DNA of 64,000 nt. Source: a phage. The stretch lies in the NCBI GenBank assembly GCA_027337125.1, contig GCA_027337125.1_3057.1. One strand, given 5' to 3'. Numbering within the stretch: position 1 is the first letter of the stretch; the number at the start of each line of letters is the position of its first letter. Under the pieces are notes generated by a model. That model was not told the origin of the DNA. It searched no databases and saw only the letters and a list, made by a program, of their open reading frames with translations. Positions 32,433 to 33,129 of this stretch are shown here, in pieces. The translations under genes were made by a program, and so were the position numbers.

Positions 32433-32674
32433 TGTCTGAACAAACTATTGAACAAAAACTGTCTGCTGAAATCGTAACTCTGAAGTCTCGTATCCTTGAT
32501 ACACAGGACCAAGCGGCTCGTCTGATGGAAGAATCCAAAATTCTGCAAGGAACTTTGGCTGAAATTGCTCGTGTAGTAGGTATCACTGGCGATACTATCA
32601 AAGTTGAAGAAATCGTTGAAGCTGTCAAGAATCTTACTGCTGAATCTGCTGATGAAGCAAAAGATGAAGAATAA
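32432..32674 (+). CDS. 57A: Tail fibre assembly chaperone gp57A
   Basis: 80 aa, [27 protein letters not shown]... Confidence 0.9.
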
Positions 32675-33129
32675 TGGAATTTAAAGACTTTTCAACGGGT
32701 CTTTATGTAGCAGCTAAGTTTTCAGAATTAACACTTGATGCGCTGGAAGAACTCCAGCGCTCTTTACGTGTTCCTAATCCAGTTCCTAGAGAAAAAATTC
32801 ATTCGACCATATGTTATTCAAGAGTAAATGTTCCATATGTTCCATCGAGTGGAAGTTTTGAAGTAGCTTCTTCTGGACATTTAGAAGTATGGAAAACACA
32901 AGATGGATCGACTCTTGTACTTGTGCTAGATTCTGAATATCTGCGTTGTCGACACATGTATGCGCGGGCGCTAGGTGCTACACATGATTTTGATGATTAC
33001 ACACCGCATATAACATTGTCTTATAATGTTGGGCCCTTATCATTTAGCGGTGATGTACAAATTCCGGTCGTATTAGATCGTGAATACAAAGAGCCTCTTA
33101 AACTCGATTGGGCAGACGATTTAAAATAA
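32674..33129 (+). CDS. 57B: gp57B, 2H phosphoesterase (Acb1-type anti-CBASS cyclic-oligonucleotide nuclease)
   Basis: 151 aa with two H-x-T/S-x motifs (HSTI, HITL) typical of the 2H fold; position after 57A. Confidence 0.85.

Follow-up and report, generated by a model that had tools for sequence, protein, structure and literature searches.

An intact acb1 (gene 57B) in a T4-like phage encodes a protein identical to T4 Acb1 over 151 residues

The closest described counterpart of the gene considered here is gene 57B of phage T4, whose product, Acb1, was found by activity-guided fractionation as a 3'3'-cGAMP-degrading activity (Hobbs et al., 2022, Nature 605:522; PMC9117128). In T4 Acb1, H44/T46 and H113/T115 form an HxT/HxT active-site tetrad, which needs no metal and cleaves 3' of adenosine by acid-base catalysis, via a cyclic-phosphate intermediate; the H44A substitution inactivates the enzyme and the H44A/H113A double mutant is catalytically dead (PMC9117128). 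Y12, W74, F107 and W147 provide base stacking, the adenine N6 position is recognised by E141, and residues 145-152 make up a lid that closes over bound 3'3'-cGAMP (PMC9117128). Only adenosine-containing cyclic di- or trinucleotides fit the pocket. Acb1 was found to block CBASS effectors in vitro, and phage P1 was rescued on a host with CBASS when Acb1 was expressed (PMC9117128). A screen with transposon mutants found 57B/acb1 to be dispensable on E. coli K-12 and depleted on a CBASS-expressing host (bioRxiv 10.1101/2025.11.20.689424).

The DNA analysed here, referred to as the window, is a stretch of 64,000 nucleotides. A first-pass annotation of it had described a 151-aa ORF carrying two motifs, HSTI and HITL, and had read the product as an Acb1-type 2H phosphoesterase with a counter-defence role. 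The ORF is present on the + strand exactly as described, and both motifs were recovered on reading the DNA, at residues 43-46 and 112-115. The features of the gene are as follows.

32674..33129, + strand: coding sequence of acb1 (gene 57B), with its ATG at 32674, 151 aa and then a TAA stop
32800..32811, + strand: first catalytic motif, H43-S44-T45-I46 (H44/T46 in T4 numbering)
33007..33018, + strand: second catalytic motif, H112-I113-T114-L115 (H113/T115 in T4 numbering)
33103..33126, + strand: C-terminal lid, residues 144-151 (T4 145-152), including W146 (T4 W147) and identical to T4

By themselves, two H-x-T/S motifs are weak evidence for Acb1 identity. At least two H-x-[TS] occurrences were found in 16% of shuffles of the 151-aa gp57B protein, and also in 10 of the 69 window ORFs of at least 100 aa. 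It is the full-length profile match, the sequence match to a solved structure and the 100% identity to T4 gp57B that place the identification beyond chance. The Pfam family PF23474 (Anti-CBASS protein Acb1) was matched at E=2.6e-60, with 202.7 bits against a gathering cutoff of 27 bits, and the alignment runs from residue 8 to residue 149 of the protein over positions 1-144 of the 144 in the profile. Besides Acb1, no Pfam family matched the 151-aa protein at E<=0.1. NCBIfam returned no match for Acb1 or Acb2, a result that is uninformative because this library targets bacterial and archaeal proteins. Among solved structures, the best sequence match was Acb1 of Erwinia phage FBB1 (PDB 7T26/7T27; E=4.1e-62, 68% identity), to which residues 8-148 could be aligned with a single one-residue gap and with both H-x-T motifs in register.

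The first-pass annotation had named the T4 57B product as the founding Acb1 and had proposed alignment to it as a check, with loss of a catalytic histidine motif as the outcome that would count against the assignment. The alignment showed the window protein to be identical to NP_049750.1 (reference NC_000866) at 151 of 151 residues, and both histidine motifs are retained against T4 and FBB1 Acb1. In comparison with these two proteins, every residue that Hobbs et al. (2022) showed to matter was found in the window protein. With numbering shifted by one relative to T4, these are the tetrad H43/T45/H112/T114 (T4 H44/T46/H113/T115), the base-stacking Y11, W73, F106 and W146 (T4 Y12, W74, F107 and W147) and the adenine-contacting E140 (T4 E141). 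The T4 identity, the Pfam match and the crystal-structure sequence match thus uphold the earlier reading of the product as an Acb1-type 2H phosphoesterase and counter-defence enzyme. We consider it nearly certain (probability about 0.96) that 32674-33129 is acb1, gene 57B of a T4-like phage, encoding an Acb1-type enzyme that destroys CBASS signals. The identity, motifs, residues and synteny are observed in the window, while for the chemistry and biology we rely on what has been published about the T4 protein, which is identical. Judging from the 68% identity to the crystallised FBB1 Acb1, the window protein is predicted to adopt the 2H phosphoesterase fold with a C-terminal lid.

If the enzyme acts as its T4 counterpart does, a small metal-independent 2H phosphoesterase would be made during infection and would bind the CBASS cyclase products 3'3'-cGAMP, cUA, cAAA and cAAG. 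The cyclic di- or trinucleotide would be clamped under the C-terminal lid between aromatic residues, with the adenosine twisted, and the two H-x-T motifs would provide acid-base catalysis for an attack of the adenosine 2'-OH on the 3'-5' bond. The ring would then open via a 2',3'-cyclic phosphate intermediate to give a linear molecule, for example GpAp. Once the signal is gone, the CBASS effector would stay inactive and the phage would escape abortive infection.

The earlier placement of the gene at the 57B position agrees with the gene order 3 / 1 / 57A / 57B / ipI / tRNA cluster, which is that of T4 (NC_000866). The neighbouring features are listed below.

31058-31669: gp3 tail protein, a neighbour of acb1
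31719-32432, + strand: gp1 dNMP kinase (PF21448, E=1.7e-103)
32432..32674, + strand: gene 57A, tail-fibre assembly chaperone (PF17594 GP57, E=3.3e-50; PHROG 1002, tail fiber chaperone)
33202-33489: IPI, internal protein I (ipI; PF11634, E=2e-53)
34544-35902, + strand: eight tRNA genes (Gln, Leu, Gly, Pro, Ser, Thr, Met/Ile-type CAU and Arg)
35157-35822: 221-aa GIY-YIG endonuclease ORF at the segB position, between the CAU tRNA and tRNA-Arg as in T4

Gene 57A, upstream of acb1 and in the same direction, is context only and functionally no part of Acb1. Three small ORFs lie between ipI and the tRNA genes, where the T4 order is ipI-trna.4/.3/.2-tRNAs. The best 12 Tequatrovirus genomes listed cover 94-98% of the 24-kb stretch around acb1 at 95-97% identity, the best among those listed being vB_EcoM_JE01 (97% coverage, 97.1% identity); the window therefore represents a T4-like phage (Tequatrovirus) and not T4 itself. 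DNA of acb1 was found in 560 phage records, with 503 at no less than 95% DNA identity and 23 at 99% or above, and nearly all of these records are Tequatrovirus phages of Escherichia, Shigella, Yersinia and Salmonella.

Several other features of the surrounding DNA were recorded. The gp1 dNMP kinase has 237 aa against 241 in T4, with a four-residue deletion (T4 E-G-K-E after VFDD) and five substitutions, and is otherwise 98% identical. Just upstream of gene 3, at 30358-31032 (+ strand), lies a 224-aa ORF whose HNH matches are weak and fall below the Pfam cutoffs; at this place in T4 (NC_000866), genes 2 and 3 are separated by no more than a short intergenic gap. Near-identical DNA of this ORF (at least 99%) is found in only 38 phage records, compared with the 560 for acb1, and those that carry it (RB32, RB33, JE01 and others) annotate a homing endonuclease; it appears to be a mobile endonuclease gene of sporadic distribution. 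Between vs and tk, at 43893-44372 (+ strand), is a 159-aa macro-domain ORF (PF01661, E=2.3e-8). At 41362-41724 (+ strand) there is a 120-aa ORF with a glycine-radical C-terminal domain (PF01228, E=2.8e-18), which we take to occupy the position of vs.6 on the T4 map.

The start of acb1 differs from the T4 gene in one respect.

32672..32676, + strand: TAATG junction, read from the DNA, in which the 57A stop TAA overlaps the acb1 ATG by one base

The T4 sequence at this point is GAA-TGA-TGG; there 57A ends with TGA, and the annotated 57B begins at the first of the two ATG codons in ATGATG, which makes gp57B 152 aa long, with MMEF as its first residues. The window junction is GAA-TAA-TGG, so that ATAATG stands in place of ATGATG through a change of G to A. 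Because the 57A stop is TAA instead of TGA, the first ATG of T4 is absent, acb1 starts at the second ATG and the protein of 151 aa lacks the first methionine of T4. Within the coding sequence there are five nucleotide differences from T4 (record OZ209023), all of them at third positions and synonymous. Phage vB_EcoM_JE01 has the same 456-nt coding sequence, the same 151-aa annotated form and an identical protein. An exact-pattern scan of IMG/VR found the window-type TAATG junction in two contigs and, between identical flanks, the T4-type TGATG junction in none, counts that are too small to serve as allele frequencies.

No strong Shine-Dalgarno sequence is obvious upstream of the acb1 ATG, and for this reason translation of acb1 probably depends on coupling to 57A, an arrangement that would hold for both the T4-type and the window-type junction. 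Expression of acb1 in the window phage, and use of the ATG at 32674, would be expected from the sequence. The motif TATAAATA, which we take to be the T4 late-promoter consensus, occurs at 32069-32076 (+ strand) inside gene 1, approximately 360 nt ahead of 57A and 600 nt ahead of acb1. It is not enriched in the window (16 found, 10.9 expected), and we claim no promoter there. A sigma-70 scan of 30200-33700 gave 17 sites against 14.0 +/- 3.5 in shuffles, which is not above chance. In that same scan, not above chance overall, a promoter-like pair was seen at 33143-33171 and 33509-33537 (+ strand), each member having TTTACA, a 17-nt spacing and TACTAT, and a TG preceding the -10; the first is found directly behind acb1, ahead of ipI, and the second directly behind ipI. 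To our eye, these TTTACA/TACTAT sites resemble T4 early promoters.

The altered junction may bear on how much enzyme is made. Guard systems such as Panoptes fire on depletion of cyclic nucleotides, and the change from TGATG to TAATG could conceivably alter Acb1 dosage, balancing CBASS evasion against detection by such guards. Together with a secondary RNA-end activity of the Acb1 2H enzyme, this is given a slim chance of being right. A further alternative, which we judge very improbable, is that acb1 is intact in sequence yet poorly expressed or silent, the G-to-A change (TGA to TAA) having removed the first ATG and altered the junction from ATGATG to ATAATG. Such a reading gains from the natural loss of acb1 in relatives. 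Type II Panoptes, a guard that fires on cA3 depletion, restricts those Tevenvirinae that carry Acb1, and relatives escape by inactivating acb1; Bas43 carries a nonsense mutation, and type II Panoptes escapers of Bas35 have acb1 mutations (PMC13577387). Against it, the second ATG has kept its frame, its overlap with the 57A stop (TAATG) is of a kind often seen where translation is coupled, and the same junction with the 151-aa coding sequence recurs in JE01 and in the two IMG/VR contigs. The allele is also widespread, as judged from the 23 phage records at a DNA identity of at least 99%, and the uniformly synonymous character of the substitutions relative to T4 is as expected under purifying selection.

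A second anti-CBASS gene is present in the window.

41938-42204, + strand: Acb2/Vs.4, 88 aa (PF24729 Acb2_Tad1_hairpin, E=1.2e-19; PDB 7UQ2 'Vs.4', E=9e-56, full length)

The window thus holds both known T4 anti-CBASS genes, acb1 and acb2 (vs.4), about 9 kb apart. In T4 infection the trigger of type I Panoptes is acb2 and not acb1, according to published work. An intact acb1 and an intact acb2 would predict that the phage is resistant to many CBASS systems, and published work would predict that it is sensitive to guards that sense the loss of cyclic nucleotides, namely type I and type II Panoptes. Both predictions may be useful in the choice of phage or host.

An Acb1 that destroys CBASS signals is not what most database records would lead one to expect at this locus, and the names they use raise another possibility, that the protein is a LigT-like 2'-5' RNA ligase or a 2',3'-cyclic phosphodiesterase with RNA ends as its substrate, perhaps serving tRNA repair. 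The description of PHROG 755 reads 'RNA ligase', a product name also used in RefSeq T4, ime09, SH7 and other records; the 2H fold is common to LigT and Acb1, and acb1 lies approximately 1.4 kb from the phage tRNA cluster. We nevertheless hold this to be highly unlikely. The LigT and 2'-5' RNA ligase families were unmatched, with Pfam giving only Acb1 at E<=0.1 and NCBIfam nothing, and the identical T4 protein was identified, by activity-guided fractionation, as a cGAMP-degrading activity, with T4 delta-acb1 validated by cyclic-nucleotide cleavage assays of lysate (PMC9117128). Moreover, the substrate-bound crystal structure has a pocket shaped for cyclic di- and trinucleotides (PMC9117128). 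The 'RNA ligase' of RefSeq and PHROGs is an older, inherited family-level 2H label and not an experimental result.

Product names across the records include 'hypothetical protein', 'RNA ligase', 'cyclic phosphodiesterase' and, in phage Killian, 'distal tail protein'. Most database records label acb1 'hypothetical protein' or 'RNA ligase', and so lag behind the 2022 characterisation. The relevance of the present finding is therefore to annotation and not to discovery, in that the founding anti-CBASS nuclease is still mislabelled in most records.

One part of the first-pass description did not stand. It had credited the protein with anti-Pycsar as well as anti-CBASS activity, whereas Acb1 is specific to CBASS signals according to the source paper (PMC9117128). 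The two halves of that paper's title, CBASS and Pycsar, appear to have been merged. The cGAMP and cUMP-AMP (cUA) that the first-pass description proposed as test molecules are appropriate CBASS substrates. That the window protein also, or instead, hydrolyses cCMP and cUMP and so acts against Pycsar is hardly credible: in its favour are the mention of both systems in the source paper's title and the breadth of the enzyme as a cyclic-nucleotide phosphodiesterase, but wild-type Acb1 was the enzyme used for comparison in the cUMP-PycTIR assay (Fig. 4b of Hobbs et al., 2022), and the HxHxDH motif of the anti-Pycsar enzyme Apyc1 was not found in the 151-aa sequence, nor was any MBL family matched (Pfam, E<=0.1). 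Apyc1 (gene 147 of phage SBSphiJ) likewise comes from a phage and breaks down a cyclic nucleotide that signals in defence, but it is a Zn-dependent homodimer of the unrelated MBL fold that acts on the cyclic mononucleotides cCMP and cUMP, and it has 'no structural or mechanistic homology to Acb1' (PMC9117128).

Set among the known systems, the Acb1 of the window can be compared with relatives at several distances. Acb2/Vs.4, the cyclic-nucleotide sponge of T4, sequesters the signal instead of hydrolysing it, and its fold is unrelated to that of Acb1. In the poxvirus cGAMP phosphodiesterases the lid is N-terminal, in contrast to the C-terminal lid of Acb1, as given in a summary of that work (Hobbs et al., Cell, summarised in PMC12064943). 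The distant entries PDB 9Q2G and 9Q2Y, also named 'Anti-CBASS protein Acb1', have marginal sequence similarity (E=0.004-0.03). Much nearer is FBB1 Acb1 (7T26, apo; 7T27, with 3'3'-cGAMP), in which the H and T of the first motif and the stretch P-H-I-T-L-S-Y-N around the second are invariant relative to the window protein. It shares most of the base-stacking aromatics and E140, and differs in about one third of residues, including W73, which is F in FBB1, and F106, which is Y, both aromatic-for-aromatic. Nearest of all is T4 Acb1 (Hobbs et al., 2022), with the same position, the same catalytic residues and the same substrate-binding residues. The gene is an already known one, present here as an ordinary intact copy; the start-codon variant is trivial, and there is no novelty beyond it.
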